Source: Stramenopiles sp. TOSAG23-2
Taxonomy: Eukaryota
NCBI GenBank assembly: GCA_900128395.1
Contig: LT649329.1
Location: 1 to 37,298, forward strand
Length of the DNA stretch: 37,298 bases
Direction: 5' to 3'
The position numbers and the translations under genes were made by a program. Positions 13,587 through 37,298 of this stretch are shown here, in pieces. The notes beneath the pieces are model-generated. The model did no database searches. It was not told the origin of the DNA and saw only the letters and a list, made by a program, of their open reading frames with translations. How positions within the stretch are numbered: position 1 is the first letter of the stretch; each line of letters begins with the position of its first letter.

Positions 13587-14681
13587 ATGAAATATATTAT
13601 CTTTCTAGTTCTTGCAATATGTACGTATTCGTCATATGCTCAAAATGTGACGAATATGAATGTGACGAATATGAATATTACTGACGCAAACATTACTAGT
13701 GTATTTGGAAAAGGCAAAGCGGGAAAGAAAAAGAACGCAACTATTAGTCCATTATCAGAAAAATTTTGCACAAGTAAAGAGGTTGATCCAAAGAAAAAAG
13801 ATTTGTGCTATTCAGCACAATTTGTCATGGTTGAAAGCGAGAAATACTTTACGAAGTTAAAGGAATTAGAACAACCACAAAAAATATATACTGATTTAAG
13901 AGAAGAAACTGTACAAGCCTTGCAGCGTGCAACTGCACAAATCAGAATAGTTAAAGAACGTTTAATTGAGTTTGATAGCCCTATCAATATCGGGCGTTCT
14001 TTCCGTGCAATCAAAGAAGGCATCAACCGTGCCATTACCAATATCTCCGATGCAACGACTATCCGTGAAACCATGGTAGCGCTGAACGGTCCACGTGATT
14101 TATGGGTCCAAAATGTGAAAGATGCTAGGGATGAACATGAAAAATATTGGAAGTATTTGGAACTATTTAGATATCATAATAAAGTAGAATTAGAAGCAGC
14201 AAAGAAAAAAGTTGCGCATCTTGAAAACATTACAATAGCAAAAGCGCAAGAATTGAAAGGACAATTGGATCATGCAGAACGCATGGCATTGAAGAATAAA
14301 GATTTTGTATCAAACCCAGACGTTGATGACGAGGCTGGTGCATTAGCATTACAATCAATGCGTAGATCTACCTCCAATGCAGCTGCAACAAAACGTTATT
14401 TATTAGCAATTGAAGCAGAATTAAAATTAGCAAGATTGACATTAGACAAAATTAAAATGAGAACGCCGGGTGGTGGATTACCAGTATTTCCAGATATTAA
14501 ACCTACCAAAAACTATGGCGCTGAGGATATTGATGCAATTAAAGATGCACAAATACGTTTAGATGAGAAAGCAAATAAAGAATTTCATCAATTGAAAGCC
14601 ACCTCCGGTGGCGAGTTTGATGTAATAGCTTCCCTTCCTGGTGCACCAAAAAAACCACAACCGCCACCACAAACATTGTAA
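13587..14681 (+). CDS. Secreted coiled-coil glycoprotein of unknown function
   Basis: Signal peptide MKYIIFLVLAICTYSSYA-Q, clustered N-x-T sequons (NVTNMNVTNMNITDANIT), helical/heptad body and Pro-rich tail. Confidence 0.8.
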   Translation: MKYIIFLVLAICTYSSYAQNVTNMNVTNMNITDANITSVFGKGKAGKKKNATISPLSEKFCTSKEVDPKKKDLCYSAQFVMVESEKYFTKLKELEQPQKIYTDLREETVQALQRATAQIRIVKERLIEFDSPINIGRSFRAIKEGINRAITNISDATTIRETMVALNGPRDLWVQNVKDARDEHEKYWKYLELFRYHNKVELEAAKKKVAHLENITIAKAQELKGQLDHAERMALKNKDFVSNPDVDDEAGALALQSMRRSTSNAAATKRYLLAIEAELKLARLTLDKIKMRTPGGGLPVFPDIKPTKNYGAEDIDAIKDAQIRLDEKANKEFHQLKATSGGEFDVIASLPGAPKKPQPPPQTL

Positions 14682-16042: not shown

Positions 16043-16400
16043 CTTGTCGAAATGTTGTTTATTATTGGTTTGTTCTTGAGACCATATACTTTTCGTGATG
16101 TTCTACTATCGATAGTTCTTCTGATAATATCGATATTAATAATTATTCTTCGAATGATGAATTTAAATTGTGAATATTATTTGTTGTGTTTTGTTGTAAT
16201 ACCTGGTAATAATAATAATTATTATACAACAATATACAAAGTGAAAAAGTATTATATATCTTTTTTTTTTAAATTGAACCTAAAATTCTATTTATTATTA
16301 ATTTTTTAAACGGCAGTGTGTATTGTATTATATACGAACAACCATCGTTTGTGTTTGTTTGCCTTTCTTTCTTTCTTCTTTATTCGTTGAGGATAAAACA

Positions 16401-18239
16401 ATGTTACAACAACAACATCTTCGTTTTTTTCAAAAACAGCAACATCGTTTCATAAATTGTAATAGAAATTATCAGACAATCAATAACAATGCCATTGTAA
16501 AACGTAGTAATTTATTTTTGCCAACTCTACGTGATTTTAATCAGAAAGAAAAAACAATAGAATCGCACAAATTGCTCATTAAAAGTGGTTATATACGCCA
16601 AACGAACTTAGGAATATACAATTATTTACCTTTTGGATTACGTGTATTAAATAAAATTGAAGAGTTAATTGACATATCTATGAAAAGTATACATGGTCAA
16701 AAATTAGCAATGCCATTATTATTAAATGCTGATAATTGGAAAAAAACGGGACGTTGGGAAACGACTGGGGACGAATTGTTTCGCCTTAAAGATCGTCATG
16801 ATGTATCTCATTGTTTAAGCCCAACGCATGAAGAAGTAGTTACTGAAATTGTTGCACAAAATGTTTTCTCACATCGTGATTTACCATTATCCTTGTATCA
16901 AATTGGAAAGAAATATCGTGATGAGCGACGTCCACGTTTTGGACCAATGCGTGCGCGTGAATTCATAATGAAAGATATGTACAGTTTTGATAAGAGTGAA
17001 ACAGATGCATTTGAAACATATGAAAAGGTGCGAGAGGCATATCATAAGATTTTCAAAGCATTGGAATTGATATATGTCGAGGTAGAAGCTGATAGTGGTA
17101 ATATTGGTGGAAATTTATCTCATGAATTTCATGTGTTAAATAATATTGGTGAGGATTTATTATTAACATGTGATACTTGTAAATACAGTGCAAATGTTGA
17201 AAAAGCTACACCATATGTAATCAACAATGGTAATAATGTAAAGAAATATACATTAAGGGGGAAATGTAAGAAAAACAATGATGGCGATGAACATAGGGAT
17301 GGTGATACTGTTCATTTTATCAATATAATTATGCCAGCAACAATCGCAGGAAACGATGATGTTGTTGATCAGGAACGGTTAAATGAAACGAAAATTCTTA
17401 CCAAATGGAATGATATGTTAATAGATAAAAATATTATCATCGATAATTATTCTATTGTTAAAGATTTTGATGACGAAGTATCTACATATTTTATTGATGC
17501 ATCAGTAAATATAGATGATGATATTAATATACAAGGGAATGATAAAAATATTATTCAAGCAGATTATTTATTAGCACGTGATGGTGATCGGTATCGTGCA
17601 TGTAATGGAGAAGAAGGTATTTTAAAGGAGAAACGAGGTATTGAAGTTGGACATATATTTTATTTAGGGAAAAAATATAGTTCTATATTAAATGCTACAT
17701 TTATGGATTCCAATAATAAAACGAATACTATTGAAATGGGATGTTATGGTATTGGTATATCTAGAATATTAGCTGCTGCAATTGAAAATAATTTAGTAAC
17801 GAATGGTGAGAACGATGATATTAATAATAATAACAAGACGAAGAAGGGTAAACAGAAAAATCAACAACAACAACAACAAATAATATGGCCATCAATTATA
17901 GCACCTTATCAATGTGTTGTATTAACTGCAATGAATAATGATGTATTAATTGATTATGCAACCGAACTTTCCATGAAATTAATAGTTGCCAATAATCATT
18001 TAAAAGATGAAATTATCATTGATGATCGTTGGAGTGCAAATTTTGGTGTTAAAATGAAAGAAGCTACATTATGGGGTGCACCAATTAAAATTATATTAGG
18101 AAAAAGCTATTTGAACGAGGGTAAAGTGGAAATTGAAACATGTAAGGGTATTAAATTACATTTGAATGAAGCAGAACTTATCGATTATATGCAAGAAAAT
18201 GTAGTTTCCATAGAGGAGAAATATTTTGAGGATGTGTAA
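16401..18239 (+). CDS. PARS2: Prolyl-tRNA synthetase, bacterial/mitochondrial type
   Basis: First ATG is at 16401. SHKLLIKSGYIRQ, WKKTGRW, LSPTHEE, motif 2 YRDERRPRFGPMRAREFIMKDMYSF, GIEVGHIFYLG, motif 3 MGCYGIGISRILAA, anticodon-binding domain DDRW..FGVKM. Transit-peptide-like N-terminus. Confidence 0.95.
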   Translation: MLQQQHLRFFQKQQHRFINCNRNYQTINNNAIVKRSNLFLPTLRDFNQKEKTIESHKLLIKSGYIRQTNLGIYNYLPFGLRVLNKIEELIDISMKSIHGQKLAMPLLLNADNWKKTGRWETTGDELFRLKDRHDVSHCLSPTHEEVVTEIVAQNVFSHRDLPLSLYQIGKKYRDERRPRFGPMRAREFIMKDMYSFDKSETDAFETYEKVREAYHKIFKALELIYVEVEADSGNIGGNLSHEFHVLNNIGEDLLLTCDTCKYSANVEKATPYVINNGNNVKKYTLRGKCKKNNDGDEHRDGDTVHFINIIMPATIAGNDDVVDQERLNETKILTKWNDMLIDKNIIIDNYSIVKDFDDEVSTYFIDASVNIDDDINIQGNDKNIIQADYLLARDGDRYRACNGEEGILKEKRGIEVGHIFYLGKKYSSILNATFMDSNNKTNTIEMGCYGIGISRILAAAIENNLVTNGENDDINNNNKTKKGKQKNQQQQQQIIWPSIIAPYQCVVLTAMNNDVLIDYATELSMKLIVANNHLKDEIIIDDRWSANFGVKMKEATLWGAPIKIILGKSYLNEGKVEIETCKGIKLHLNEAELIDYMQENVVSIEEKYFEDV

Positions 18240-18563
18240 TTATATATAAGGGATTTTTGTGTGTCTCACATTTACTTTGTCGCGTACATAAAATTAAAAA
18301 ATATATTTTATCTCGTACGTTCTCGTAAAAAAAATATGTTTTGGCTTTTTGCCACCAACCGTGCACTTCAAGATCTTTATCCGGATAGTCACCGGTTGTT
18401 GTTCACAACAGGATCTTTCACTTCGACAACCTCACCGTTTTCGAATGAACCCGACGTCCAGCACGTTCAACGAGAGCGCGCGGAAGGATAGAAACCTACT
18501 CATGCTTGTAGAGTACGTATTAGTTTGCAGAAGGTGCATTAGAGCTTTACTATTTTACTATAT

Positions 18564-18759
18564 CTGGTACTTCAAAATTAAAAAATTTAGCTGGTGTTCT
18601 CGGTGCACAGATATTGTGCACCGTTTTTATGTACTTAAAAGTAGTCTGATATATAGGCCAACTGGTACTTCAAAATTAAAAAATTTAGCTGGTGTTCTCG
18701 GTGCACAGATATTGTGCACCGTTTTTATGTACTTAAAAGTAGTCTGATATATAGGCCAA
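18564..18759. repeat. Perfect 2 x 98-bp tandem repeat (left arm)
   Basis: 18564-18661 is identical to 18662-18759. Confidence 0.95.
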
Positions 18760-22025: not shown

Positions 22026-23009
22026 ATTGTTTTTTCTTTTTATATATAATAAAATATATAAATAATGTGTATAAATATATATTATATTGTATATATTTCA
22101 AGTATTAAGAATTGATTACCACCTTGTATATATATATATATAATTATATATTATATATATAATTTTAAATAATAATTCATCATCAATATTATTTATGATT
22201 GCCAGATTGTTGTTGTTGCCAGAGTGCTGGAGTGCCAGATTGCCAGATGATTGCTGTGGACGACTTAGACTAGACACTTAGACTGTGGATTGTGGGATTA
22301 TTGCTGGATTGCCAGTATTGCTGGATTGGCATTTTGTTATGCCGTGGTTGCGCTCCGTGGGTGGGACACTGCGTACTTATGATATACTAAAGAATAGCTA
22401 ATATATCTATCAAATATATGAATATCTTGTATGTATGTATGTAGTAATACCATAATGGTCATGATGTATGTACCTTGTAAATAGATAATAATATCACAAT
22501 GCTAGCACTGAATACGAGATCCACTCACTATCCAGGCTGCTTTTCATCCCACAACAGCACACCAGCACACTGGCACACCAGCACACTACTTCTACAGTAT
22601 GACACTGGCACATCAGCCAGGACAGCCAGACAGCCGCCTCTCCTTTGTTGACACGAATTAGGTGGTCCAATCAAAATGTGATGAATGATTGATACTCTTC
22701 TTCTTGGACTTATAGTTGTTAGTACTGGAAGAACGATTTCAAAAAAAAAAATAATATATATTTAACAAAGATGTGAAGATATATGTGACATATCAAATTC
22801 TACATATTATCCTTCTTTATGTATTGTGACATCAATTTGATTTTGTTTTTTTTTTTTCCATTTAGAATTCTTATTAGTATATTATAAAGCTTCACACCTT
22901 CGTTTGTTTTGTTGTATTGTTGGTGGTATATTTTTATTATAATATATTTAATCTCTTTTAAAAAAAAAAAAAAAAAAAAGGGGTTTCATCAAAAAAAAAA
23001 AACTTAAAA

Positions 23010-23038
23010 NNNNNNNNNNNNNNNNNNNNNNNNNNNNN
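23010..23038. other. Assembly gap (29 N) within poly-A runs
   Basis: Run of N flanked by homopolymer A tracts. Confidence 0.99.
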
Positions 23039-23105
23039 TTTAAAAAAAAAAAAAAAAAAAAAGTGTGTCTATCAAAATAAAAAAAATAAAAAATAATTTA
23101 GTAGT

Positions 23106-26100
23106 ATGAAATTATTATTTTTTAGTTCATCCATCACTATCTGTTGCTACTTTTTGCTTTTTCTCTCTTCAGCGATTAATTTGATATGTTTTGCTAATTC
23201 ACAACCAGTGCAAACCAATTATGCTCCAGAAGCGACACCATTTAATAAAGAAGTTTGTAGTTATGAAGATTATCAACGCGCAGTTGAATTGTTTAATATT
23301 GGTAATAATTACCATATGGATAACGATGTAAAAAATGCTGAAATATATTATAACAAATCATTAAATTTTTTCCCATTATTTGGTGAAGCATATTTGAACC
23401 TAGGCAATATTTATAGAGGCGAGAGGTCATTATGGGCATATAAAAAAGCTGCAGAAGTTATTGGACCAAATAGCTTATGCCCAAACAGACCTTTGTATGC
23501 GAATGCAATGTCGAATATTGGTCACCATTTGGTTGAAGGACAAGGAAAAACAAAAGGATTAGATTATGAAAATATTCAACAAGCTATTGAATATTATAAA
23601 GAAGCATTGCGTTGGGTACCAGAGCATCATGCCACTTGGTATAATTTAGGAATAGCATTTGAAAAGCAAGGATTCAGGCAAGAAGCATTCAATGCATACA
23701 ATGAAGTGTTAAAGTATGTTCCTGAACATACCGGTGCAAATTTAAATATTGGAAATTTATTAATGTATGGCGGATATCATAATGCGTCCTTAAAATTTCA
23801 TGAAAGGGTATTGCAAAGCCCAACTGTTAATACTTGGTATAAAGTAGCGACGTTAAACAATATGGCAGAGACGTACAGATTTTTGAATGACGTTGAATCT
23901 TCATTGAAAACAAATAAAAGGGCGTTAGAATTAGAACCAGGCAATACGCATACAATCTTTAGTATTTACAAAACGAAACGTACGTTGATTGATTGGGAAG
24001 GTATAGAAGATGAAATTGATTTTATGATTCATCTAACTAGAACACAGTTAAAAAATGGGCCAAATTGCACGATGTTGCCATATGATTACACGTTAATGCC
24101 AGTGCATAAAAGAGATTTATTAGACGTTGCAGCTGCAAACACATATATATATGATGGCTTAGTACATCCACCAAGGGATCCTAGTAAGGACCATTTGGTT
24201 GGAATTAAATTTCAACAACAACAACAACCGAAACGACATAAATTAATTGTAGGTTACACTGGATACGACTTTAATAATCATCCAATGGGACATTTGACAT
24301 GCGGTGTGTTAGAAATGCATGATCGTAGTATTTTTGGCGTCTCTTGTTACCCATATGGTTCCGATGATTTGTCAGAACAACGAAGACGGATTGTCAAAGC
24401 GTGTGACCATTTCGAAAATGTAACAATGATAGCCGATTTTAAAATTGCATCGTTAATGTCTGGACAGGGCGTTCATATAGCAATCGATTTAATGGCCCAT
24501 ACACGTGGTACGAGATTAGGTGTAGCAGCATATCACCCGGGTGCCATATTGGTGAATTATCTGGGATATCCAGGCACGATAGGCACAAAACGATATGCTG
24601 AATATATCATTGTTGATCGTCATATAGTTGTTCCTGAAACTGCAACTGATGAAGTAAGTGAAAAGCCTGTCTATTTACCACATCATTATCAAGCAAATGA
24701 TTTTCCCCTGTTCACAGATTATTGTGATGGTGTTTCGACTAGATTGGTCACCCCAGAGTTTGAACGAATAAATGATGAAGCAGTTAATATGTATTGTCCT
24801 GGTGGATCTAAATATTCAGAAAAACGTGCTGTAGAAGGATTACCAACTAGTGACGATGCAGTTGTAATGTGCAATTTTAATACTATCGATAAGTTGGAAC
24901 AACAAATTTATTCTATATGGATGTCTATATTATCGCGTGTGCCAAATAGCGTCTTGTGGTTATTAGCACCTCAAGGAAAAACTGGAGATACAGTTCGTAG
25001 AAATTTTTATCGCGAAGCACAACAGCTTGGAATTGATAAGGAAAGGCTTATTATTGCTCGACGCGTTCCTAAATTCGATCATTTAGATCGATATAGATAT
25101 TGTGATGTGTTTCTTGATACTTTTCTATATAACGCCCATAGCACAGCATCTGACGCTTTATGGGCGTTTGTTCCATTAGTAACCTTTGAAGGAGAAGCAT
25201 TTCAAAGTCGTGTAGCTGCTGATTTGTTGTATAGTATCGGTTTAGATGAATTAGTCGCGCATTCGAGACGATCATTTGAAGATATTGCTGTCAAAGTGGG
25301 CAAAAGCAAATCCTTGCGTAGATCCATTCGCAACAAGCTGGCTGCAAATGCTCTAACGTATCCATTATTTGATACAAGACGAATAACTATTAATTTGGAA
25401 CGTTCCTATGAGATTATGTGGGAAGTAAAAGAAACCTTTAAGTTGAAGGCACAAAATATAGTTGTTGCGCCTAATGATCCAATGATTGCAAATACTAAAT
25501 TGATAAATACGCGTTTTGAAAAGGAAGTGGAGAAAGCTATGACGCTTCAAGCATCTGGAAATTTAACGTCTGCTGGAAATATTTATCGTAGATTATTACA
25601 CGTTGATCCCTTCAATACCAATGTTTGGCATTTACTTGGTATATTAAGACATTCGCAAGGATTTAGCGAAACTGGTAAAAGTTTTATTACACATGCAATT
25701 TATTTACAAGAACAGAACGGTCAACAATTTGTAAGCTTATTTCACCACAATTTAGTTGAAGTATGTCGCAGCGTTGGTGATATCGAATGTGCATTACGTA
25801 GCTTAGTGCTAACATGGGATAACCAAGATGTAAATTTGGATAATACTAAAACTGTATTGCACGATCTTGTGCAACTAGGAGAGCATGATGCAGTTATTAG
25901 CTTTTATAAAGCGTATGGTCACCACTTGTTATTGCCAGAACGTGTTGCAACTGACAGCCATAATACAGTCAGTGAAATATTGACTCTTTTTTCCATTGGT
26001 TATGCTGCAAAACACCAAGCAGATGGTATTTCAGGAAATGGTGGCGGTGTACCGCAAATATGTTTTGAATTATTGTCGTATGCTTTGCGCATGGATCCAA

Positions 26101-27503
26101 ATTATCCACGACCATGGCAAAAGCTTGCCATCATGTACGATTCTAAAGAGGAATTTAGGACTGCATTTCGTATTTATACAAACATGATGATGTTGCAAAA
26201 TAGGATATACATGCAGCAAGTAAATATGGACCCAGCTTTGATTTATATGAAGCAAATGAAACATCAAGTTCAGCTTGCTAGACAATCTGCAAATCAGAAT
26301 GGGAAGAAAATTGTTGTAATTTATTGTAATGAATATGAACAAACTTGGTGGCCAAATTGGGGCCCAAATTCAATGGATACTGGTGGTGTTGGTGGATCAG
26401 AAGAAGCCGTGATTTTCTTATCGAAGGAATTGCATCAAATATATGGCTATCATGTCGAAGTATACGGAGAAGCATTGCCAAAGGATTGGGGAGAACATGA
26501 AAAAACTGGAGTATGGTGGTTACCACATCAAATATACGATGCAACGAATCCGGAAATAAAACCTGATATCTTCGTTGCATGGAGATATCATATTTCTACT
26601 GTATTAGGTGATATAGCAAAACAACGATATTTATGGTTGCAAGATGTATCCCCTCGATACAAAATCGGCTATACAAATGAATATGTAGACACTCTATCTG
26701 GAATTTTCCCTTTAAGTCATTTTCATGGTAGACTTGGACTGTCCGATTATGCGGTCAAAACAAAATCTCACGTAACACCCAACGCATTAGACCCAAAATA
26801 TTTCTACAACGGCCCAAATCATAACCACAATTTTATTTATGCAAGTGCACCTAATCGTGGCTTAGAAATTGTGTTGCGCGCATGGCCTTACATAAAAGCG
26901 GCTCTGCCAAATGCAAAGTTGGAAGTTTACTATGGGTTTTCCAAATCATTCATGAAGTTTGGAAAAAATACTATTCCACAGTTTGATTTATGGTATGCGG
27001 AAATGTTGAAATTGTTGAAGCATGATGGCATAACTTATGTTGGTATGGCAGATCATCACAAATTAGCACAAGGGTATGTCAACGCCGGGTTTTATCTTTA
27101 TCCAACTCACTACCCAGAAACTGGATGTGTAGCATTAATGAAAGCACAAGCATTAGGAGCTATACCTATTACAAGTAGACATTATGATTCAACTTTGCCG
27201 GAGTTAGTAGGGGAATTTGATTTAGGTCCACCAATGACTGAGCGACGCAAAAAAATGAGAATTCATGAAGACCCTACATGGATCGATGATTGGGTTAATT
27301 CTGTAATCAATACGGGGAAGATGGATCCAAATAAGATAAAATTGCATCGTGAAAAAATGATGAAACATGCACGGCATACATTTTTATGGAGTACAGTAGC
27401 TGGTTTGTGGCATCAAAACTTTGTGAAAGGTGGTGTTAATGGTGGGGCAAAAAAGTCATTTGCTGAAACATTCCCTGCTATTACTTCTATTACAATGTCG
27501 TAG
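23106..27503 (+). CDS. Signal peptide + TPR + GT41 (OGT-like) + TPR + GT4-like glycosyltransferase fusion
   Basis: Hydrophobic N-terminus. TPRs (EAYLNLGNIY, ATWYNLGIAF, ANLNIGNLL). GT41 motifs IVGYTGYDFNNHPMGHL, IAIDLMAHT, NYLGYPGTIG, CNFNTIDKL, DVFLDTFLYNAHSTASDALW. Second TPR block (NVWHLLGIL). GT-B/GT4-like motifs GVGGSEEAV, FIYASAPNRGL, YLYPTHYPETGCVALMKAQALGAIPITS. Confidence 0.9.
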   Translation: MKLLFFSSSITICCYFLLFLSSAINLICFANSQPVQTNYAPEATPFNKEVCSYEDYQRAVELFNIGNNYHMDNDVKNAEIYYNKSLNFFPLFGEAYLNLGNIYRGERSLWAYKKAAEVIGPNSLCPNRPLYANAMSNIGHHLVEGQGKTKGLDYENIQQAIEYYKEALRWVPEHHATWYNLGIAFEKQGFRQEAFNAYNEVLKYVPEHTGANLNIGNLLMYGGYHNASLKFHERVLQSPTVNTWYKVATLNNMAETYRFLNDVESSLKTNKRALELEPGNTHTIFSIYKTKRTLIDWEGIEDEIDFMIHLTRTQLKNGPNCTMLPYDYTLMPVHKRDLLDVAAANTYIYDGLVHPPRDPSKDHLVGIKFQQQQQPKRHKLIVGYTGYDFNNHPMGHLTCGVLEMHDRSIFGVSCYPYGSDDLSEQRRRIVKACDHFENVTMIADFKIASLMSGQGVHIAIDLMAHTRGTRLGVAAYHPGAILVNYLGYPGTIGTKRYAEYIIVDRHIVVPETATDEVSEKPVYLPHHYQANDFPLFTDYCDGVSTRLVTPEFERINDEAVNMYCPGGSKYSEKRAVEGLPTSDDAVVMCNFNTIDKLEQQIYSIWMSILSRVPNSVLWLLAPQGKTGDTVRRNFYREAQQLGIDKERLIIARRVPKFDHLDRYRYCDVFLDTFLYNAHSTASDALWAFVPLVTFEGEAFQSRVAADLLYSIGLDELVAHSRRSFEDIAVKVGKSKSLRRSIRNKLAANALTYPLFDTRRITINLERSYEIMWEVKETFKLKAQNIVVAPNDPMIANTKLINTRFEKEVEKAMTLQASGNLTSAGNIYRRLLHVDPFNTNVWHLLGILRHSQGFSETGKSFITHAIYLQEQNGQQFVSLFHHNLVEVCRSVGDIECALRSLVLTWDNQDVNLDNTKTVLHDLVQLGEHDAVISFYKAYGHHLLLPERVATDSHNTVSEILTLFSIGYAAKHQADGISGNGGGVPQICFELLSYALRMDPNYPRPWQKLAIMYDSKEEFRTAFRIYTNMMMLQNRIYMQQVNMDPALIYMKQMKHQVQLARQSANQNGKKIVVIYCNEYEQTWWPNWGPNSMDTGGVGGSEEAVIFLSKELHQIYGYHVEVYGEALPKDWGEHEKTGVWWLPHQIYDATNPEIKPDIFVAWRYHISTVLGDIAKQRYLWLQDVSPRYKIGYTNEYVDTLSGIFPLSHFHGRLGLSDYAVKTKSHVTPNALDPKYFYNGPNHNHNFIYASAPNRGLEIVLRAWPYIKAALPNAKLEVYYGFSKSFMKFGKNTIPQFDLWYAEMLKLLKHDGITYVGMADHHKLAQGYVNAGFYLYPTHYPETGCVALMKAQALGAIPITSRHYDSTLPELVGEFDLGPPMTERRKKMRIHEDPTWIDDWVNSVINTGKMDPNKIKLHREKMMKHARHTFLWSTVAGLWHQNFVKGGVNGGAKKSFAETFPAITSITMS

Positions 27504-27620
27504 AAAATGTTTTCTGTGGAGTTATGAATTGAAAAAAAAAAAATATTAAATGAGATAGAGAGAGGAATAACCAATATTTATATAAAAAATATACGAGTCG
27601 TAAATTCAATAAAAAAAAAT

Positions 27621-30600
27621 TTAATGCCCTCTTACTCTTGCATCATGCAAAGCAATTTTTGCATCATGTAATTTGTTTTGAATCTTTTTGTATTCATCCA
27701 ACGTAGAATTGTATTCCCCTAATGCTTCTTCGTAACTTAAATTATTACTCGTATTACTAGATGAAGGCAAACCAAAATAACGTTGGTTTTTTTCAAAAGT
27801 TTCATTTCTCATCAATAATGAATGTGAACTTAATGAACTGTTTTGTCCCATTTCGCTATCATATAATGCAAAACCACCAGGGGCAACTAAACTATTTTTG
27901 CCAAGGTTTACATGTCCAGTTTTATAAAATCGGTCTTCATATAAGTGTGTTTGCAAAGTCCCACCAGTCACAACACTATTATCACCAATGTGAGTTAAAT
28001 CATGCTCCATGAACGTAGCACCAAACAAAAATACATTCTCCCCAATGTCTACACCAAACAATCTATAAATTATATTGATCACTGGCGTACCATCAAACAC
28101 TCTTACCGCACCGCGCATAAATATTTCCATTTCATAGGAAATATCACTACGCCATATAAAACAAGACCACATTGGAACTTGAATTGGGCGATATTTGCAA
28201 ACAACTAACCATTTTCCTAATGCGCAAACCAATACGATGACAATTGCATATGTCAATGAAATTAGCAACCACCAGGAAAATTTAATCCAAAATGACAAAT
28301 ACAATAAATTATCAGAGGTTTCAACATCAAATTGATTGTCGACATAATTGAAAATATACATGTAAAGCAACATGATGGCAAAAATCATTGTCATTTGAGT
28401 GATGATTTTGATCAAATTCATCACAAGTCTCAATATTCGCATATAAAATGGCGGATTAAATGTCAAATCAGTTTCAGTTGATTGCATCTCGTTTCTCCAA
28501 ACTTTCCTACTAGGAAGCTTAAAAGAGGGGCTACCTAAATATGTAGACCCTTGTTCCATGTTTTTTGGGCTGACACTCATTACACCTAACAATGTATTGC
28601 CTTTTATCATACTTCCTTGTGGAACTACACTCATATTGCCTAGAAACGTTTTTTCACCTAACGAGGAACGGCGTAAAAGCAATTGTCCATAATAAACGGG
28701 AGCAATTCCAAGTAATGCACCACCATTAATCATGCAATGTTTACCACAATGTACTAGTTCTGGTTTTGGACCCCAATTTGATACATCGATTTCACTTCCT
28801 TCACCTACATCCATACCCATACCATACCGTAATGTGAAACGCATAAATACGGTTTCTGTTAGGCCTCTTGATGGCCCTGTCATCAACATGCGAATTGCGT
28901 ATTGTGCTACAAACCTACGTAAATATTCAAAGGAATCTAATGTGACTAGTCCTTCATATTGTGAATTTCCACTTACCACACGTTTTACAAGACATAGAAA
29001 AAAAACGGTAAGAAATTGTTGAATAAGCGCACACAACGGGACCCATTTAAACAATGGTAAACAATCAAAGTTCAATAATGCTGTTTGGAAACTTGGAACC
29101 GTGTAATAAAGCAATCCAACCGGTGCAATGAAAGCTATGCTAAATAACATCATTTGGATTGCTAAAATAAATAATATACCAATTTGAACAAAAAATGAAC
29201 CGCAGGTAGACTGTTGTTGTGAGTTTGATTTCAAGTTCATTAATTGTCGTTTTAAAGGACTTGTCGTCGATGAGTTATTTTTTATCATCTTTCCTGGTGC
29301 ACCTTGAATTTCAGTGTTTTTTTCATAATTTGAAAATTTCGCCGTAATTGTTAATGGGTGGACAATCGTATCATCCCCAACAATACTTCCTAATGCAATT
29401 GTCGATCTTTCTCCAACATAGACATTATTGCCTATTTTAATTTTTCGTAACTTTAAAATATGTTTTTCTACTACCCATGTTTGTATGACAGCATCAGGTT
29501 GCAATGTAACGTTATTTCCAATTTCAACTAAATCAGTTTCAAAAAATGGCGTACATGCAAGGTATACATTTTCCCCAATTTTTGAACCTAATAATCGCGA
29601 TGAAAGAACAGCTAGAGAATGACCAGGCAAAAATAATGGATTTATTACCATTCTATGAAGCAACCACCATTTAAAATAATTCAGGCTGTAAAGCGGGTAA
29701 TCCGCCTCCTTAATACGCCCAATAAAAAACCACTTTATAAAAACTGCTTGTAAAAACAAAATAGGCGGGATAACCACTGGAACGCAAATGAGTTGAACGA
29801 AATATACCCAAGTTGGTACATTGTTCAAGACAAATTGCTGCACTAGCATTACTAGGTTCAATAACAAAGCAAACCATATATATACCATCATTTGTAAAAA
29901 TACTACCAAAAACTTTCGTCGCTTGTTGTAAAATGAATCCAATTCTGTAGTTCTTAATAATGGAATAGTGTTGACATCAGCACCTATATCAAATCCTTTT
30001 ATTCCTATTTTTGTTTCAACTATGCATGAATCGATATATGCTGATAAAGCACGCGGTGAGGTATATTCATATACATCTTTCATTTTTAAAAAACTCCAGT
30101 TTTTTTCATTACGACATTTTGATATTAACAATGCCCCAGATACTGAATTGAATCCATAGTCAAAAATATTTTCTGCCATTGGTATTTTAATTTGCAAAAT
30201 GTTTAATAATATGTTGGCAATGTAATGTTCCGTGCTTGTTTTTGGTTGACTGTCCTTACTTTCTCCTACACTATCATCCCCAAATGACAAACGTGGATCA
30301 ACCAATAGCTCAAGCGTACTCCAATAAGGTAATTTACCTCGTAGCACTTTCCCACTAATGTTGCTATGTGGAATTTCATCTACTGTGATTCTAACAAAAG
30401 CATTTGGTATCATGTATTTCGGCAAAACTGTTTTTAAATATCGCCTAGCATCTGTTGGATTGAAACTTGTTTCATCCGAAGTTACAATAAATGCCACAAG
30501 CTCCTGCGCATTTGATACTGGGTTTTTTTGAACAGCTACAACAACAGATTTGCAACCTTCGACTCCACTTATATGCGTTTCAATATCTTCTAATTCTACA

Positions 30601-32279
30601 CGATAACCTCTAATTTTCACTTGGCTATCTGCACGACCGATGAAAACAACAGAGCCATCTTTGTCTTCACGAACAAGATCCCCCGTCTTATATATACGAG
30701 CTCCATCTACAAAAACAAATTTCGAAGCAGTTTTCACAGGGGCATTCAAATATCCTAATGTAACACCTTTTCCACCGATACAAAGTTCACCTTCTTCGCC
30801 ATTTTTCACTACTTTCATAGTTTCATCACGAATCGAGACGGTGTAACCCGGTAATCCATTTCCAATGCTTACAGGTTTTCCAGCAAATAATTCAGCATAA
30901 GTAGCGGAGACAGTAGTTTCAGTTGGACCATACATATTGAAAAATCTTCTACCAGGTTGCCATTTTTCAACAACAGGTGCTGTACATTGCTCCCCGCCGA
31001 CAATAACGATTCGTAACAATGGCAGATCATATCCAGTACCCATAATTGTTAAATTAGTGGGAGTAGTATCTAAAATTGTAATGCCGAGTTCATTGATTGT
31101 TAACTTTAAATCTGCCCCAGATTGCATCATTTCTGGTGTACCAACGACAAGTGTTGCGCCTCCACTAAATGCCATCCAAATTTCGCCATAAGATGCATCA
31201 AACGCAGTGCTGTAACCTTGAAAAATACGATCATTTGAATTGCTTGAAAAAAGTTGCTTCAACACGTTAATGTAATGGCTTGCATTTCTGACCGATACCA
31301 TGACTCCTTTCGGGATACCAGTAGTTCCACTAGTATAAATAATATACGCTATTTTTGGATTTATCGTAAAATTTGCATCAATATAGTTAAGCTTCGTCAT
31401 TTTGTTCCCTCCTTTATTACTATTGATTTTTTTTTTATTGGTATTGATATTACTACCAATTGAAGAGTGGATAATGTTAGTATCTTGTAATACTACATGT
31501 CCTAATGAAGTTTTGATTTTTTCCATCATTGCATAATCACTTGAAGTTAGTGATTTCTCATTATTATTATCTTTACTAGCACCATTATTTTTATTTCCAT
31601 TATTATTATTATTTGATTCTTTTTTTTCTCCTCCATCATGTTTCAATAAAGAAAACAGCCCTTCCGTTTCTCGTATAATAACTGCAGCACCAGAGTTTTG
31701 CAGTGTAAATAATACACGTGTTTGCGGAAAGCCCGTATCTATCGGTACGTATGAACATTGCGCCTTTAAAATTCCTAACATTGAAATGTAAACGTTGACT
31801 CCGCGTTTTACAAATATTGCTACTACGCTCCCTTTGACAATATCCATCGACTGTAAGGTCTCTGCTATTTTATTTGCCTTGTTTAATATCATTTCATACT
31901 GGTAAACAACACCATTTTCCTCAACAGCTGAAAGTTTTGGGTTCTTTTTGCAAACACTTTCAAACACTTCATGTGGCTTCACAAAAGCCTCTTTTTTTGC
32001 TTCTTCAACTTCATTATTATGTTCATCGTAAGTGAAGCTTGCTCTTAACGTTCGAAATGGGGAAGGATTGGGCCACAGCCGCGAATTTGGTGACATCACA
32101 GCATTTTGAGCTTTAGCAAGTGAACCTGCAGACACAGACCGACCAATTTCACCTAATGTTCTTTCTTTGTTTTCATCAAATGATGTTGAATATTGATATT
32201 GTGAACTAACATTGTTTACATTCAACAATGGCGTCTTAATTGATGGGTCGCTACCGACTTTCTTATGCCGGCTAAACAT
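27621..32279 (-). CDS. Pls/PosA-family membrane-bound single-module NRPS-like homo-poly(amino acid) synthetase
   Basis: First ATG is at 32279. A-domain cores: YIIYTSGTTGIPKG, FDASYGEIW, NMYGPTETT, GELCIGGKGVTLGYL, YKTGDL, GRADSQVKIRGYRVELEDIE, LPKYMIP, SGKVLR. T domain IFDYGFNS. Three pairs of TM helices alternate with three hexapeptide beta-helix domains (LLGSKIGENV; GMDVGEGSEI; LFGVDIGENV...LQTHLYEDR). No C or TE domain. Confidence 0.92.
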   Translation of the reverse strand: MFSRHKKVGSDPSIKTPLLNVNNVSSQYQYSTSFDENKERTLGEIGRSVSAGSLAKAQNAVMSPNSRLWPNPSPFRTLRASFTYDEHNNEVEEAKKEAFVKPHEVFESVCKKNPKLSAVEENGVVYQYEMILNKANKIAETLQSMDIVKGSVVAIFVKRGVNVYISMLGILKAQCSYVPIDTGFPQTRVLFTLQNSGAAVIIRETEGLFSLLKHDGGEKKESNNNNNGNKNNGASKDNNNEKSLTSSDYAMMEKIKTSLGHVVLQDTNIIHSSIGSNINTNKKKINSNKGGNKMTKLNYIDANFTINPKIAYIIYTSGTTGIPKGVMVSVRNASHYINVLKQLFSSNSNDRIFQGYSTAFDASYGEIWMAFSGGATLVVGTPEMMQSGADLKLTINELGITILDTTPTNLTIMGTGYDLPLLRIVIVGGEQCTAPVVEKWQPGRRFFNMYGPTETTVSATYAELFAGKPVSIGNGLPGYTVSIRDETMKVVKNGEEGELCIGGKGVTLGYLNAPVKTASKFVFVDGARIYKTGDLVREDKDGSVVFIGRADSQVKIRGYRVELEDIETHISGVEGCKSVVVAVQKNPVSNAQELVAFIVTSDETSFNPTDARRYLKTVLPKYMIPNAFVRITVDEIPHSNISGKVLRGKLPYWSTLELLVDPRLSFGDDSVGESKDSQPKTSTEHYIANILLNILQIKIPMAENIFDYGFNSVSGALLISKCRNEKNWSFLKMKDVYEYTSPRALSAYIDSCIVETKIGIKGFDIGADVNTIPLLRTTELDSFYNKRRKFLVVFLQMMVYIWFALLLNLVMLVQQFVLNNVPTWVYFVQLICVPVVIPPILFLQAVFIKWFFIGRIKEADYPLYSLNYFKWWLLHRMVINPLFLPGHSLAVLSSRLLGSKIGENVYLACTPFFETDLVEIGNNVTLQPDAVIQTWVVEKHILKLRKIKIGNNVYVGERSTIALGSIVGDDTIVHPLTITAKFSNYEKNTEIQGAPGKMIKNNSSTTSPLKRQLMNLKSNSQQQSTCGSFFVQIGILFILAIQMMLFSIAFIAPVGLLYYTVPSFQTALLNFDCLPLFKWVPLCALIQQFLTVFFLCLVKRVVSGNSQYEGLVTLDSFEYLRRFVAQYAIRMLMTGPSRGLTETVFMRFTLRYGMGMDVGEGSEIDVSNWGPKPELVHCGKHCMINGGALLGIAPVYYGQLLLRRSSLGEKTFLGNMSVVPQGSMIKGNTLLGVMSVSPKNMEQGSTYLGSPSFKLPSRKVWRNEMQSTETDLTFNPPFYMRILRLVMNLIKIITQMTMIFAIMLLYMYIFNYVDNQFDVETSDNLLYLSFWIKFSWWLLISLTYAIVIVLVCALGKWLVVCKYRPIQVPMWSCFIWRSDISYEMEIFMRGAVRVFDGTPVINIIYRLFGVDIGENVFLFGATFMEHDLTHIGDNSVVTGGTLQTHLYEDRFYKTGHVNLGKNSLVAPGGFALYDSEMGQNSSLSSHSLLMRNETFEKNQRYFGLPSSSNTSNNLSYEEALGEYNSTLDEYKKIQNKLHDAKIALHDARVRGH

Positions 32280-32786
32280 TCTTATCGCTGATATTGTCAA
32301 TTCTTTTTTATAACTTGTTGAATTATGTTCTTTCTTCTTATATCTTTCTTCTTATACGTGTATTTCTAATTTTTATTATATCGAGAAAAGATTCTCATTA
32401 TTATTTTTCTTAGGTGCTTAGGTTAGTTATTAATATTATATGGGTTTTGCCAGGATTACCTGGATTTTTTTGTTGATGTATGAGGAGATATTTCGCAAAT
32501 TTGTGGATAATATGCAGTGCATATCTATTAGAATCTATGAAAACGAAATTAAAGAATATGGCCAATAATACGCACACTATAACACGGCTCAAGTGCTACT
32601 CAGTACTATAGTGTTTTGCTCCTATTAATATTATATTAAAAAAAGCTTTTAAAGGAAATGATTTTAATCTTTGTGTGGTAAAAATGGCATTTCTTGTTTT
32701 TTGTACAGATGATAAAGAAAAAAATTCGAATAAAAAAATCTAGACGACTACATATACGCGGTTTTATCTTCGTTCTCTCTCCCTTT

Positions 32787-32813
32787 CTCACTCACTCACT
32801 CACTCACTCACTC
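32787..32813. repeat. (CTCA)6+ microsatellite
   Basis: ctca repeated six times plus ctc, just downstream of the stop of the last gene. Confidence 0.9.
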
Positions 32814-32846
32814 CCACTACACACAAAATTCTCTCTCTCTCAAAAT

Positions 32847-35800
32847 TTAATACGGCAAATTTAACACTACAACATTCACATCATGTTCTTCTCTTAATAA
32901 ACGCGTAGTTGATAAAATAATACTACGTATCGTTCTCCATTCTTCTGGTAAATTAAATTCAGCATCTTGCTTATTTAGTGGACCTTCTTTATTACCCAAA
33001 TATGGTTTTGGTTCACCTTTACTATTTTGTTTTGGTTTCTTCATCGCATTTTTAAAAACAATAATATCACGTGCAGATGCTTTTTTTGCCCAATTGAACA
33101 CATTTGTAAAAGTTGTCAATGCAAGTCGAAAATTTACGGATGGAACAAATAAAATACATATATCAGGGCGAAAGCCGATAATATGAAATAATATTTCACT
33201 ACATTCTACCATATCAGCAAATGTTAAAACTAGGATGATAGGCTTTTTACCATTGTTATCACTAAAGTTTTCAAACCATGACAATGCAGCAGATGCACTT
33301 TTTATCCTATATTGAACATGAATAAAATGAAACAATTCTTTTATGCTCATACCGTTATTAAACATAGTATCTCGTGGATAATCCCCATGTTTTATCAATG
33401 GTGTTTGAAATGGGACGTTGTCACAATGGGCAGCGTAACGACGATTTATAAAATTATAAAAATATGTGGATGATGAAAAAAGTCTTTTTTCATGAAATTT
33501 TAAATGATCAACATCATCTGGGTTTGGATTCATAGGATGGTGGTGACCACCAGTTAATTCAGTAGCCCTGTGGTTGATTTCATATATAAGTCTACGAATC
33601 AAAATTTTTTTACGGACTTTTTCATTAGTTTGTTGCAGTACTGGACGCCTCGTTTTAAATGCAAGTGACAAAAATTGTGGTATTTTAATAGATTTTCCAT
33701 AATGTAAAGATTTCACTTTCATATCAACTTCTGCCAAAGGCTGGGAAGTATTAATCTTACTTTCATCCACCTCCTTATTTGCATTCTCTACAGCGTCACC
33801 ATCCCCTTTCTCCACTCCTTTCGCTTGCTGCTGCTGCTGTTGTTGTTGTTGTTGCTTTTTGCTGTTTTTACGCATTTTTTTCTTACTCCTATCAGGAACT
33901 CTTTTTCTATTTTCTATTTTGCATTTAAATGGAAAAATTAACGAATGTGATCGTGTCACATCACACATTTCTATTAATTGATCTTCGTATGGTAAAAACA
34001 TCAATAATGGGGACGATACAAATAAAAGCGGTGCTTCGTGTTTCCGCATGGACCGTAATTCATTCGGTACAACCACACGCCGGGTGAATAATGATGCAAA
34101 GAAACCTATTTGCCCATGTTCCGTTGGTATATCATCCTTGGTACTTCCTTTAATTGGTATTGCGTGTACTTTTTGGTATTCTTCAGCATTTTCAATAATA
34201 GTACTCGCTACCTTCTTAAAGTGCAAGCCGTCAACTGCATTTATTAAATTGATACGAGATGATATCGAATCATCGCGTTTTGTAACAACAGACATTCGTT
34301 TCTTCGATGCCTGGATACTATTATCACGTTGATGCACATCTGATTTTTTCCTTACCATATTCACAACTATTTTTTGCGTCTCTATAGGGAAACGGACATA
34401 ATTTATATTCTCATGTGGTACATCATTCATAAGTGAAATGACAAAGTCATTTTTTATGCCACCATCTTCTTCTTGTGGGCTTCCATCGTCTTTTACCGGC
34501 GATGCATTATAGATACTATCATCATTTTCAAACATATCCATATCTACTTGTACACTAATCTTTCGCTGCATTATACTCTCTTTTGGGGGGTCAACCTCGG
34601 TCAACATAGCAATTGAACGACATCCGCTTTGAGGAGAATAAATCATGATAAAATTTTCAACATTGATTACATATACAAGCCTTAATAAGTTTTCAATATC
34701 TACTATTCCATTGGCATCATCAACATTGCCATCGTAAATGTTACTCAATATTGCTTCAAAATTCATATCAACTGGATTTGGTTGGGGTTGCTCCCCACGT
34801 ATAGATGCTGTGCGCCTCCATTGCATTGTATGTGCCAAATCGAATAAATTTCGCTTTATTAACCCGTAAATTTCTTTTGGACTCTTCTTTTTACTATATC
34901 CTTCCGCTGATAGTTGTATTCTATATAAACAACTACTGCAAAATTCACATGTGACAATGTCACTATCATAGCCTGTAACGATGCTATCCCACTTCGTCCT
35001 GGCATCTTTCATGGTTTCTTTCACTACACGTGTGCTTTTTCCATTGTGTACTAATTTGTAATTGTAAGTAAAAAGTGGGGATAATATATAGCTGTTTTCT
35101 TGATTATCATCAAAAATTTCTACTTTATCATTATTTTTATTCTTGTTGGCATTACTACTACTTGTACTTGCGTTTGAAAATTGAGAACGTCGTAACATTT
35201 CCCGTTGACTTTGAATGTAAAGATCAAATATATAAATATATTTATTCACCTTTGTCCGCGGCAAGGCAAAATGCAACAGCATTGCTCGACTAAGTATGCC
35301 AAATAAGCGATTAGCTGTCTTAATATTTACCGTTCGTAGCAAAGGTACATTTGAGCCATCAACAAATAAATATACAAATAAATCAATCGCTTCGCTCCAA
35401 TGCATAACGCATCGTTTTAGATTTCCTTTTAAATAATTCAATTCTGCCATTAATAAACAACTATTTATATGATCAATTGGAATTCCCATTGTACGAGTGC
35501 GTGAATATGCAAATGTAGCAGGATGTTCCAAATCTGAAAATTTATATGCAATACGTCTATTTTGGACATCTCCATCAACTGTCTTCTCTAATAAACAAAT
35601 AGGAACTTTAGAATTGCTTCTTTTGTGAAGCGTATTATTGTTGTTCTTCTCATTGTCCTTAGTGCTATTGTTGTTACAGCCTGAAAATAAAATATCAACC
35701 GGTGCTTCATGAAAATAATCTCTAATAAGCACATGGGTTTGTACACTAGCAATTTCCAAAGCCATTCTAGTGGCACCAACATGGTCGCCAATAGATGAAT

Positions 35801-37298
35801 AAATGTCAAATGCTTTTCTATAAGCTTTGACACAATGCTTAACACTGTCGCTAATATTATTCAAAACAATCTGTTCACGTTTATCTTCCTCTTTTGACAA
35901 TACTATATTCATAATTATAGGAAATTCAACGTTAACATTCCCAAGCCGCGTTGCATGTTCGTAGATATCCCCTTCGAATTCGTAATTTTTCGCTTGCTGT
36001 AATTTTGTATTATTGCCATGAGCTCGTTCTCGTTTATGCCATTGAATAAATACATTCAAAGCATTATCGACGCATTTCTTTTCTAATTCATATTTAGCTT
36101 TAAGCCATTCATATACAGGGGGATCCAGAGGTTCAAATAAATTACGGAAAAACGAATTAATTAAACGGCCAGCACTACCAAAACCTTTGCGATTTTTTTT
36201 CTTTTTCATTGAAACCTCATTCATGTTTTTCTCTAAATCACTTTTATGGAGAAACTCTTTCTTCACCTTTTCTTCCAATTTTGTTTCCATATATTTTATA
36301 CGATTTAAAATTATTAATGCGCGACTTGGTGCACCTGCTTGTAAAAATGTTTCAGCTAACCATAAATGTACCACCTGCAATTTTCCATCTACATTATCAA
36401 TATCTTCAACATCATCGATTTCAATGGATTGTGCTAAACGTAATAATATGGTAGATGCATATCCTGGCCAACCAGCATTCAAACAAAATCGTGCTAAAGT
36501 AATCTCTAACGATTGTACACTTTCTAGCAAATTTTTTCGGTCCATTTGCCTCATTAAATTATCTTTTGTAATGCCTTTTTCTATATCTCGTTTTAAACGT
36601 TTATATTTAAAACGCATGTACTTTATCCATGTTTTCAATTCATTTTTGCCTTTTGAAAATTCACCTTGACAACATCTTATTTTAGCAATTGCTTCTACCA
36701 TATACATATATTCATTTTTATTTTCAAAATATTTACATTGTTGAAATATGTCCAGGTGATATTTTGCAGCACGTGTGTAATCAGCCATTTCGTAACATTT
36801 TACGGCTAAATCTCGTAACGCTTTTTTATATTCCCTTTTATTATTTCCATTATCACTTTCGGTATTATTATTTTCACTACTCAATTCAATTTGTTCAAGA
36901 ACAGACGTTGATTGAAAAATGTCTTCTACTTTAAAATCAGTTCCATGTTTTGGCTGTAATGTTTCTACTTTTAATATTAAATCGCGTATCTCCTCTGGGA
37001 GTTCTTCCATCAATATTTCCCCAGGGGCTATAATACGTTTTGTTGAAGCACGCTTGCTTTCGCCTTCCTTAATAGCGGACAGTAAAAAATTAGAAGCTTG
37101 CATATTTTCATCATGCTCGTCATCATCCTCAGCGGAAAATACAGCCCTCAATTTTAGAAATTGATTAGAAACTGTAGAAGAGCTCCCGTCATCATCTTTT
37201 ACCGTTGTTACACTGGGAGTTTTATTGTCACTTGCTAGACTGTTAGTGTTATCATTATCGATCATAGTATCCCAGTCTTCTTCCTCCTCTGAGTCTAA
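32847..37298 (-). CDS. Large TPR-like alpha-solenoid protein with a C-terminal CHAT/separase-like segment; probably 5'-partial
   Basis: 1472-aa ORF from ATG 37265, but the frame is open to the window end. TPR-like helices (LAVKCYEMADYTRAAKYH, LWLAETFLQAGAPSRAL, LLMAELNYLKGNLKRC). Motif PLLFVSSPLLMFLPYEDQL...VTRSHSL. Confidence 0.8.
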   Translation of the reverse strand, partial: LDSEEEEDWDTMIDNDNTNSLASDNKTPSVTTVKDDDGSSSTVSNQFLKLRAVFSAEDDDEHDENMQASNFLLSAIKEGESKRASTKRIIAPGEILMEELPEEIRDLILKVETLQPKHGTDFKVEDIFQSTSVLEQIELSSENNNTESDNGNNKREYKKALRDLAVKCYEMADYTRAAKYHLDIFQQCKYFENKNEYMYMVEAIAKIRCCQGEFSKGKNELKTWIKYMRFKYKRLKRDIEKGITKDNLMRQMDRKNLLESVQSLEITLARFCLNAGWPGYASTILLRLAQSIEIDDVEDIDNVDGKLQVVHLWLAETFLQAGAPSRALIILNRIKYMETKLEEKVKKEFLHKSDLEKNMNEVSMKKKKNRKGFGSAGRLINSFFRNLFEPLDPPVYEWLKAKYELEKKCVDNALNVFIQWHKRERAHGNNTKLQQAKNYEFEGDIYEHATRLGNVNVEFPIIMNIVLSKEEDKREQIVLNNISDSVKHCVKAYRKAFDIYSSIGDHVGATRMALEIASVQTHVLIRDYFHEAPVDILFSGCNNNSTKDNEKNNNNTLHKRSNSKVPICLLEKTVDGDVQNRRIAYKFSDLEHPATFAYSRTRTMGIPIDHINSCLLMAELNYLKGNLKRCVMHWSEAIDLFVYLFVDGSNVPLLRTVNIKTANRLFGILSRAMLLHFALPRTKVNKYIYIFDLYIQSQREMLRRSQFSNASTSSSNANKNKNNDKVEIFDDNQENSYILSPLFTYNYKLVHNGKSTRVVKETMKDARTKWDSIVTGYDSDIVTCEFCSSCLYRIQLSAEGYSKKKSPKEIYGLIKRNLFDLAHTMQWRRTASIRGEQPQPNPVDMNFEAILSNIYDGNVDDANGIVDIENLLRLVYVINVENFIMIYSPQSGCRSIAMLTEVDPPKESIMQRKISVQVDMDMFENDDSIYNASPVKDDGSPQEEDGGIKNDFVISLMNDVPHENINYVRFPIETQKIVVNMVRKKSDVHQRDNSIQASKKRMSVVTKRDDSISSRINLINAVDGLHFKKVASTIIENAEEYQKVHAIPIKGSTKDDIPTEHGQIGFFASLFTRRVVVPNELRSMRKHEAPLLFVSSPLLMFLPYEDQLIEMCDVTRSHSLIFPFKCKIENRKRVPDRSKKKMRKNSKKQQQQQQQQQQAKGVEKGDGDAVENANKEVDESKINTSQPLAEVDMKVKSLHYGKSIKIPQFLSLAFKTRRPVLQQTNEKVRKKILIRRLIYEINHRATELTGGHHHPMNPNPDDVDHLKFHEKRLFSSSTYFYNFINRRYAAHCDNVPFQTPLIKHGDYPRDTMFNNGMSIKELFHFIHVQYRIKSASAALSWFENFSDNNGKKPIILVLTFADMVECSEILFHIIGFRPDICILFVPSVNFRLALTTFTNVFNWAKKASARDIIVFKNAMKKPKQNSKGEPKPYLGNKEGPLNKQDAEFNLPEEWRTIRSIILSTTRLLREEHDVNVVVLNLPY

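Follow-up and report, generated by a model that had tools for sequence, protein, structure and literature searches.

There are few homopoly(amino acid) synthetases. Their products, for example epsilon-polylysine, are used commercially as antimicrobials. In Pls, the Streptomyces synthetase for epsilon-poly-L-lysine, a didomain of an adenylation (A) and a carrier (T) domain is combined with six membrane helices and three tandem soluble domains (C1–C3), with no condensation or thioesterase domain; its mechanism was reportedly set out by Yamanaka in 2008. The same architecture is found in the delta-poly-L-ornithine synthetase PosA of Acinetobacter baumannii (PDB 8G95-8G98; PMC10522769) and, in a eukaryotic host, in the fungal epsilon-poly-L-lysine synthetase Epls of Epichloe festucae, which has a characterised antimicrobial polymer product (PMC7179176). 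The family's occurrence in eukaryotes is in itself not new: Epls was presented in 2020 as the first eukaryotic case (PMC7179176), and Patel and Gulick mention homologues, of unknown substrate, in 'Metazoa, Alveota, and Amoebozoa' (PMC10522769). Here the analysis was directed to a gene of this kind in 37,298 nucleotides (nt) of DNA from Stramenopiles sp. TOSAG23-2 (contig LT649329.1, assembly GCA_900128395.1), the whole stretch being referred to as the window. An initial annotation, made from the sequence, had read the open reading frame (ORF) at 27621..32279 on the minus strand as an intact poly(amino acid) synthetase of Pls/PosA type in a protist genome. The reading preferred here, to which we give a probability of about 70%, is that an uncultured marine protist has here a functional nuclear gene, which is transcribed and encodes a Pls/PosA-type synthetase that was acquired once from bacteria, has host-adapted codons and would work by the mechanism assigned to its homologues.

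Architecture of the synthetase

As predicted from its sequence, the window protein is a single-module, membrane-anchored enzyme resembling a nonribosomal peptide synthetase (NRPS) and belongs by architecture to the Pls/PosA family, with a sub-threshold score for the family model TIGR02353 as caveat; in the trees it is placed inside the family. The open frame (27621..32300, minus strand, as for all coordinates of this gene) opens at a TTG codon and its earliest ATG, at 32279, gives a coding sequence (27621..32279) of 1552 amino acids (aa) plus stop, which is a single exon on the ORF list, its translation and RNA contigs without joints; gene calls of 1552 aa are also present in a protein cluster at 99% identity. 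The adenylation domain, with cores A3 to A10, occupies residues 106-652 (30324..31964) and matched Pfam AMP-binding (E 8.5e-62), the amino-acid adenylation model TIGR01733 (336.9 bits, above the cut-off of 317.4) and the Pls A-domain structure 7wew_A (232.8 bits). In a 12-row alignment of the window protein with two eukaryote-like and nine bacterial relatives, A3 (TSGTTGxPKG), A5 (NxYGPTE), A7/A8 and Lys644 of A10 were invariant. The carrier domain, assigned from Pfam PP-binding, covers residues 686-749 (30033..30224), with G709, S712 and A716 invariant; the putative phosphopantetheine-attachment residue Ser712 (30144-30146) was present in all 12 rows and lies here in the motif DYGFNS, compared with DLGGHS in bacteria. 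No Condensation or Thioesterase domain was matched by Pfam in the synthetase at E<=0.01.

In the terminal half of the protein, residues 798-1512 (numbered from the TTG) aligned to positions 7-694 of the 695 in TIGR02353 at E 3.5e-104, nearly end to end; this NCBIfam model defines the terminal domain of the 'Pls/PosA family non-ribosomal peptide synthetase'. Kyte-Doolittle hydropathy gave six hydrophobic segments forming three pairs, and an AlphaFold2 model of the last 773 aa, built from a 40-row alignment with a mean predicted local distance difference test score of 87.5 and a predicted template modelling score of 0.86, contained three long-helix pairs with a beta-rich domain after each, plus a long terminal helix. 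From hydropathy and model, the membrane helix pairs were placed at residues ~786-820 and 823-853 (29721..29924; model helices 7-41 and 44-74), ~1026-1060 and 1080-1103 (28971..29204) and ~1278-1316 and 1328-1359 (28203..28448). The soluble domains following them are C1 (residues ~854-1025, 29205..29720) and C2 (residues ~1104-1277, 28449..28970), both predicted to be left-handed beta-helices, and C3 (residues ~1360-1510, 27750..28202). The only Pfam Hexapep match in the synthetase falls in C1, C2 was assigned by hhalign and model, and C3 by alignment, hhalign and model. The three domains are mutually homologous, with hhalign probabilities of 99.6-100% and E values of 1e-23 to 7e-39. Searched against the PDB with Foldseek, the model returned only left-handed beta-helix acyltransferases (24 matches at E<=0.001), among them maltose, galactoside and serine acetyltransferases, LpxA and LpxD, whereas a PDB sequence search with the terminal 769 aa gave only weak beta-helix matches (best E 0.007), those in C2 falling at residues 414-472 of the terminal fragment. 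The motif QTHLYEDR in C3 (27930-27953) holds Q1443 and H1445, both invariant in the 12-row alignment; His1445 was invariant in 40 of 40 rows, and the family-wide invariant residues of C1-C3 are kept in the window protein. Neither the sequence nor the Foldseek search of the PDB met a solved Pls-type terminal domain, in agreement with the PosA paper's statement that there was no such structure as of 2023 (PMC10522769). The pseudo-threefold beta-helix terminal domain predicted for PosA in that paper matches the model of the window protein (PMC10522769).

Three additions distinguish the window protein from bacterial members, to which it shows ~25-30% identity. A hydrophilic N-terminal extension (residues 1-105, 31965..32279), located by the 12-row alignment and an insert scan, was not found in the bacterial rows; short motifs of it recur in the relatives P0005 and P0006, and an extension of ~105 hydrophilic aa, with conserved motifs KTPLL, MSPNSR and SPF+T, is common to the eukaryote-associated clade. 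The A domain has two Asn/Lys-rich low-complexity inserts (residues 213-230 and 259-289, 31413..31643), the columns of which are gaps in at least eight of the nine bacterial rows of the 12-row alignment. The third addition is a clade-specific long C-terminal helix (residues 1516-1551, 27627..27734; model helix 737-772), missing from most bacterial rows. The N-terminal extension and C-terminal helix may have a role in regulation, targeting or oligomerisation. The window protein thus shares the architecture of Pls and differs from it by the eukaryote-type extensions at both ends, the Asn-rich inserts and, as shown below, the lack of a Glu in its substrate pocket.

These results bear out most of what the initial annotation had read from the sequence, namely the A3-A10 cores, the carrier serine in DYGFNS, the six transmembrane helices with three beta-helix domains, the want of condensation and thioesterase domains, the Asn-rich inserts and, overall, the Pls/PosA architecture, on which the Pfam and TIGR02353 matches, conserved residues, hydropathy, hhalign, AlphaFold2 and Foldseek agree; the alignment to the Pls/PosA terminal-domain model that it had proposed as a check covered the profile almost completely, at a score under the curated cut-off. 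It was wrong in having the protein end at LQTHLYEDR, as ~100 more residues follow, including the C-terminal helix.

Substrate pocket and relatives

The ten Stachelhaus positions, which we take to be those of GrsA numbering, were read from alignment columns anchored at the core motifs. In the window protein they give the code DAGDIGMVSK (D361, A362, G365, D404, I426, G428, M449, V457, S458 and K644), in which the Asp of position 1 is present. The same columns reproduced the published codes DMEHNGTVSK (PosA), DGESISVVNK (beta-lysine type) and DIESIGTVTK and gave DLEDIGTVVK, matching the published pattern DLEDIGTV(T/V/I)K; the mapping is considered sound because these codes, quoted in PMC10522769, were reproduced. 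According to that source, Glu221, at position 3, is 'conserved in all CHPAs' and its exchange in PosA (E221A) gives an inactive enzyme, Ala at position 2 is assigned to lysine-type enzymes, the ornithine (Orn)-activating module of bacitracin synthesis has an acid at position 4 instead, and a Bdellovibrionales homologue with a variant code prefers Arg (PMC10522769). CHPAs are cationic homopoly(amino acid) synthetases, those characterised being Pls, PosA, PDAP, PDAB and the beta-Lys enzymes. Of the lysine-type pair, Ala in position 2 with Glu in position 3, the window protein has the Ala but not the Glu, which is replaced by Gly. PosA has the essential Glu221 in a code otherwise also different, and Epls, which is 51% identical to Pls, retains the lysine pocket of bacterial Pls (PMC7179176).

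The pocket survey was extended to 133 family rows of 1250-1800 aa, shorter and longer entries being dropped as fragments or fusions. Position 3 was Glu in 123 rows, Asp in 2, Gly in 6, Ser in 1 and a gap in 1, and the seven rows with a non-acidic residue (Gly/Ser) all fell in one protist clade, the count including P0353, a cluster duplicate of P0203. Within the clade P0351 has the code DASDIGMVSK and the remaining rows DAGDIGMVSK, the latter being identical in five distinct lineages at 37-80% identity to the window protein. On these sequences the clade has a predicted pocket that is new to the family, in which position 2 is Ala, position 3 leaves a hole, position 4 is Asp and position 7 is Met. 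That it is unchanged even at 37-40% identity argues for a selected, specific substrate.

Relatives were collected by a word-indexed search, which gave 47 proteins at 99%, 61% and 40% identity and then bacterial proteins at no more than 29%, with EukProt proteome entries in the 61% cluster and in a further cluster at 49%, and by exhaustive HMMER searching with the terminal domain as query, which gave 2276 proteins at E<=1e-3, 302 of them at E<=1e-30. Trees were generated with FastTree (79 rows) and with IQ-TREE under LG+C20 with posterior mean site frequencies (32 rows), with four rows dropped (three duplicates from the same clusters and one whose code was gapped) and no more than three taken per specificity code. 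In both trees, the window protein, its orthologue from the locus L004 described below, P0005, P0006, P0203 and P0351 were monophyletic with support 100, on a long stem (0.59-0.87 changes per column). The sister of the clade was P0205 from a Myxococcota bacterium (support 99 and 100; MCK6509893.1, also P0355), which is the nearest named relative in both trees, with 33% identity over the terminal domain; it differs in being bacterial, 1402 aa long and of code DAESIGGVVK, with Glu at position 3. The next branch in both trees consisted of P0211 from Nematostella vectensis with P0346 (support 99 and 97). P0211 (also P0359; XP_001625520) is a cnidarian record and a full-length family member, so that the same wider tree group holds a non-fungal eukaryotic record, which differs from the window protein by its lysine-type code DAESIGSVVK, its 30% identity and its position outside the DAGD clade; P0211 pairs with a row of Bdellovibrionales-like code, adjoining the protist clade. 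Rows of PosA type lie elsewhere in the tree, as does, far from the clade, the fungal-type-code row P0273, the rows being without the Epls sequence itself. The window synthetase is orthologous neither to Pls or PosA nor to fungal Epls. The nesting of the clade among bacterial-type members fits a single ancient bacterial transfer into the clade ancestor and supports the bacterial ancestry proposed initially.

Literature searches found no paper on a protist enzyme of the Pls/PosA kind, although Supplementary Table 2 of PMC10522769 may list related codes. The initial view that the characterised eukaryotic enzymes are fungal stands, Epls being the only one, while novelty of a non-fungal eukaryotic homologue as such does not, such homologues having been mentioned in 2023 (PMC10522769). 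What is new is, on the one hand, the evidence for domestication of the gene, for selection on it, for its transcription and for its occurrence in the runs of 14 studies (marine or aquatic where labelled) and, on the other, the variant pocket shared by the clade.

Genomic setting and transcription

The neighbouring ORFs are eukaryotic in kind and include a Sec1/Vps33-like protein, an exosome-type RNase PH subunit, an EF-hand protein, a mitochondrial-type prolyl-tRNA synthetase (ProRS) and a GT41/TPR glycosyltransferase; protein clusters of the Sec1-like neighbour were eukaryote-only, with no lineage indicated. The synthetase gene has a GC content of 0.354 (0.271 at third codon positions), and its relative synonymous codon usage correlated with that of the rest of the window at 0.95, the other ten ORFs giving 0.84-0.95. 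A scan of metagenome contigs produced 23 pattern matches, of which 5 were confirmed, at four loci (L001-L004). L001, L002 and L003 are collinear with window positions 37296..22622 at 97-99% nt identity, and both junctions, that of the synthetase with its upstream gene and that with the GT41 gene, recur in all three. The orthologue in L004 is 80% identical in aa and 75% in nt; the genes after it encode a PPR-repeat protein and a PH/cNMP-binding protein, which makes this a second, different eukaryotic neighbourhood. The reading of the gene as domesticated rather than contaminant was thereby confirmed, and no chimeric join with bacterial DNA appeared. Compared with L004, the rate of nonsynonymous change (dN) was 0.127 and that of synonymous change (dS) ~2.3, which is saturated, giving a ratio of ~0.055; compared with the L002 variant there were 34.5 synonymous and 26.5 nonsynonymous differences, with a ratio of 0.21. 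The synthetase is under purifying selection, with dN/dS of ~0.05-0.2.

Of 24 listed public runs, 20 contained the stretch; they come from 14 studies, and one may be its source. Runs with readable labels are marine, seawater or aquatic metagenomes, several labels being coded or blank, and six of the runs containing the stretch are RNA runs. Four RNA runs, each from a different study, were examined (two PolyA, one oligo-dT, one cDNA), and in all of them Logan contigs spanned 27594-32172 in pieces, mostly at 95-99+% identity, in line with the transcript sought as a check on the initial annotation; as the RNA contigs have no joints, no intron was detected. The synthetase thus appears to be transcribed into polyadenylated RNA. 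RNA contigs of the GT41 gene end at 27496-27528 and those of the synthetase start at 27594-27615, and the intergenic bins at 32364-32791 had no RNA cover in any of the four runs, gaps between contigs being no proof of absence; the contig ends and the intergenic gap fit separate mRNAs. At 31583-31615, RNA contigs of three runs diverge from the window on either side of a 30-nt stretch, with a depth of 202 in one run, and because this lies at an Asn-rich insert, a match by unrelated transcripts is probable.

Among the neighbours, the gene at 23106-27503 (plus strand) encodes 1465 aa, with TPR repeats both N-terminal and internal and with two GT41 stretches (E 1.2e-77) of the O-GlcNAc/SPY transferase type; it is convergent with the synthetase gene, ~117 bp separating the stop codons. 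On the other side, a 1483-aa open frame (32847-37298, minus strand) runs off the window end, is 98% conserved in L002 and contains a poly-Gln run and low-complexity acidic and Asn stretches; it matched no Pfam family at E<=0.01. Past the window's end, L002 has an RCC1-repeat gene (976-2616, plus strand) in two 259-aa frames ~80 nt apart, a split that reflects either a short intron, in which case it is the sole intron candidate of the neighbourhood, or a frameshift. Three further ORFs on the plus strand, 1-3951 (1316 aa), 13587-14681 (364 aa) and 18349-18747 (132 aa), matched no Pfam family at the thresholds used. The ProRS, of mitochondrial/bacterial type, is encoded at 16323-18239 (plus strand). 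In a 35-row tree the window ProRS and five relatives (46-69% identity) formed a clade (support 99) that was sister to oomycetes (support 84 in the Shimodaira-Hasegawa-like approximate likelihood ratio test), the named sampling comprising only oomycetes, fungi, dictyostelids, animals and bacteria. This single-gene tree is a weak pointer to a stramenopile affinity of the organism.

Proposed mechanism and alternative explanations

By homology with Pls and PosA, the A domain would adenylate one amino acid and attach it, as a thioester, to the phosphopantetheine arm at Ser712, a step that would need a host Sfp-type phosphopantetheinyl transferase (PPTase). The C-terminal pseudo-trimer of left-handed beta-helix domains, held at the membrane by the three helix pairs, would then repeatedly pass the aminoacyl group to a side-chain amine, either on a free monomer or on the growing chain, and the product would be an isopeptide-linked homopolymer, freed without a thioesterase. 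By analogy with the beta-helix acyltransferases, His1445 is presumably a candidate general base. Since position 3 is Gly and position 4 is Asp, it is the latter acid that would hold the side-chain amine; a long basic amino acid, bound through Asp404, is the most likely substrate. The first guess is L-lysine, on the reasoning that Asp has one carbon less than the Glu found in Orn modules; that the substrate is instead one new to the Pls/PosA family is a serious alternative. A cationic polymer is plausible. The initial interpretation, which is supported in part, took the polymer to be probably cationic, as family resemblance suggests, and supposed that it might kill bacterial prey or serve in defence. 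The polymerisation chemistry and the role of position 4 are deduced from PMC10522769 and PMC7179176.

Several observations weigh against the reading of the gene as a host-encoded synthetase of this family and mechanism. TIGR02353 scored 349.6 bits, under its curated cut-off of 423.1, and Pfam PP-binding 19.8 bits (E 1e-3) against a cut-off of 20.8. The Glu expected at position 3 of a CHPA enzyme is Gly here, so that homology to the characterised cationic-polymer enzymes fails at the key specificity residue. Few rows in the tree are named, and the donor lineage therefore depends on one named sister. The RNA evidence consists of Logan contigs, which give no strand, ends or level, and DNA carry-over is possible. 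Finally, no ACPS match was found in the 13 window ORFs or in 4 additional L002 ORFs, and the initial statement that the window has no PPTase thus holds for the 13 ORFs scanned.

The pocket bears most directly on what the enzyme makes. A true epsilon-poly-L-lysine synthetase, with the substrate and product of Streptomyces Pls and Epichloe Epls and lysine merely bound in a different manner, can be proposed only tentatively. Ala at position 2 is a lysine-type residue (PMC10522769), an acidic residue is still in the pocket, at position 4, and both the sister P0205 and Nematostella P0211 have lysine-like DAESIG..VK codes; yet the code departs from the lysine-type rows at positions 3, 4, 7 and 9, the pocket is not used by any characterised member, and the long clade stem allows a change of function. 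It is possible, though doubtful, that the enzyme instead makes a homopoly(amino acid) from a substrate new to the family, for example a basic amino acid that is longer or modified, or one that is not cationic. The position-3 Gly/Ser, confined to the clade (7 of 133 rows) and strictly kept at 37-80% identity, suggests selection on a distinct specificity, and the Arg preference of the Bdellovibrionales homologue indicates that variant codes can shift activity, but ordinary diamino acids can also be served by an acid relocated to position 4, as stated for the bacitracin Orn module (PMC10522769). Going further, one may speculate that a widespread marine protist lineage, possibly of the stramenopiles, makes a homopoly(amino acid) chemically new to the enzyme family, whose monomer, held by Asp at position 4 of the pocket in place of the otherwise nearly universal Glu at position 3, is not lysine, Orn, diaminobutyric acid, diaminopropionic acid or beta-lysine.

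Two other explanations concern whether a polymer is made or whether the gene belongs to the protist at all. The fold is that of left-handed beta-helix acyltransferases, which are single-transfer enzymes, and this, together with the membrane location and the clade's own N- and C-terminal extensions, would suit a terminal domain that passes one aminoacyl group to a membrane lipid, a polyamine or a small amine without polymerisation. Such a function is improbable, however, as every characterised protein with the terminal domain is a polymerase (PMC10522769) and the invariant C1-C3 residues are kept. One could argue for contamination by bacteria, a chimeric assembly or a transferred gene in decay because the family is prokaryotic apart from the fungal and a few eukaryotic homologues and because the window is metagenome-type sequence. 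Contamination, chimera and pseudogene decay were rejected, and we regard them as very improbable, on the host-like codon usage, the junctions repeated in three other assemblies, the orthologue in a second eukaryotic neighbourhood, the RNA contigs from poly(A) libraries, the purifying selection on an intact frame and the two relatives in EukProt proteomes. The preferred reading, a host gene for a Pls/PosA-type synthetase, is retained.

The synthetase is a cloneable target for a new polymer and offers a test of the published universal rule of Glu at position 3. It provides a clean example of the transfer of a secondary-metabolite enzyme from a bacterium to a protist, which may matter for protist-bacteria interactions in the plankton. 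If a chemically new homopoly(amino acid) is indeed made, ocean plankton would contain a eukaryotic natural product that has so far gone unrecognised.

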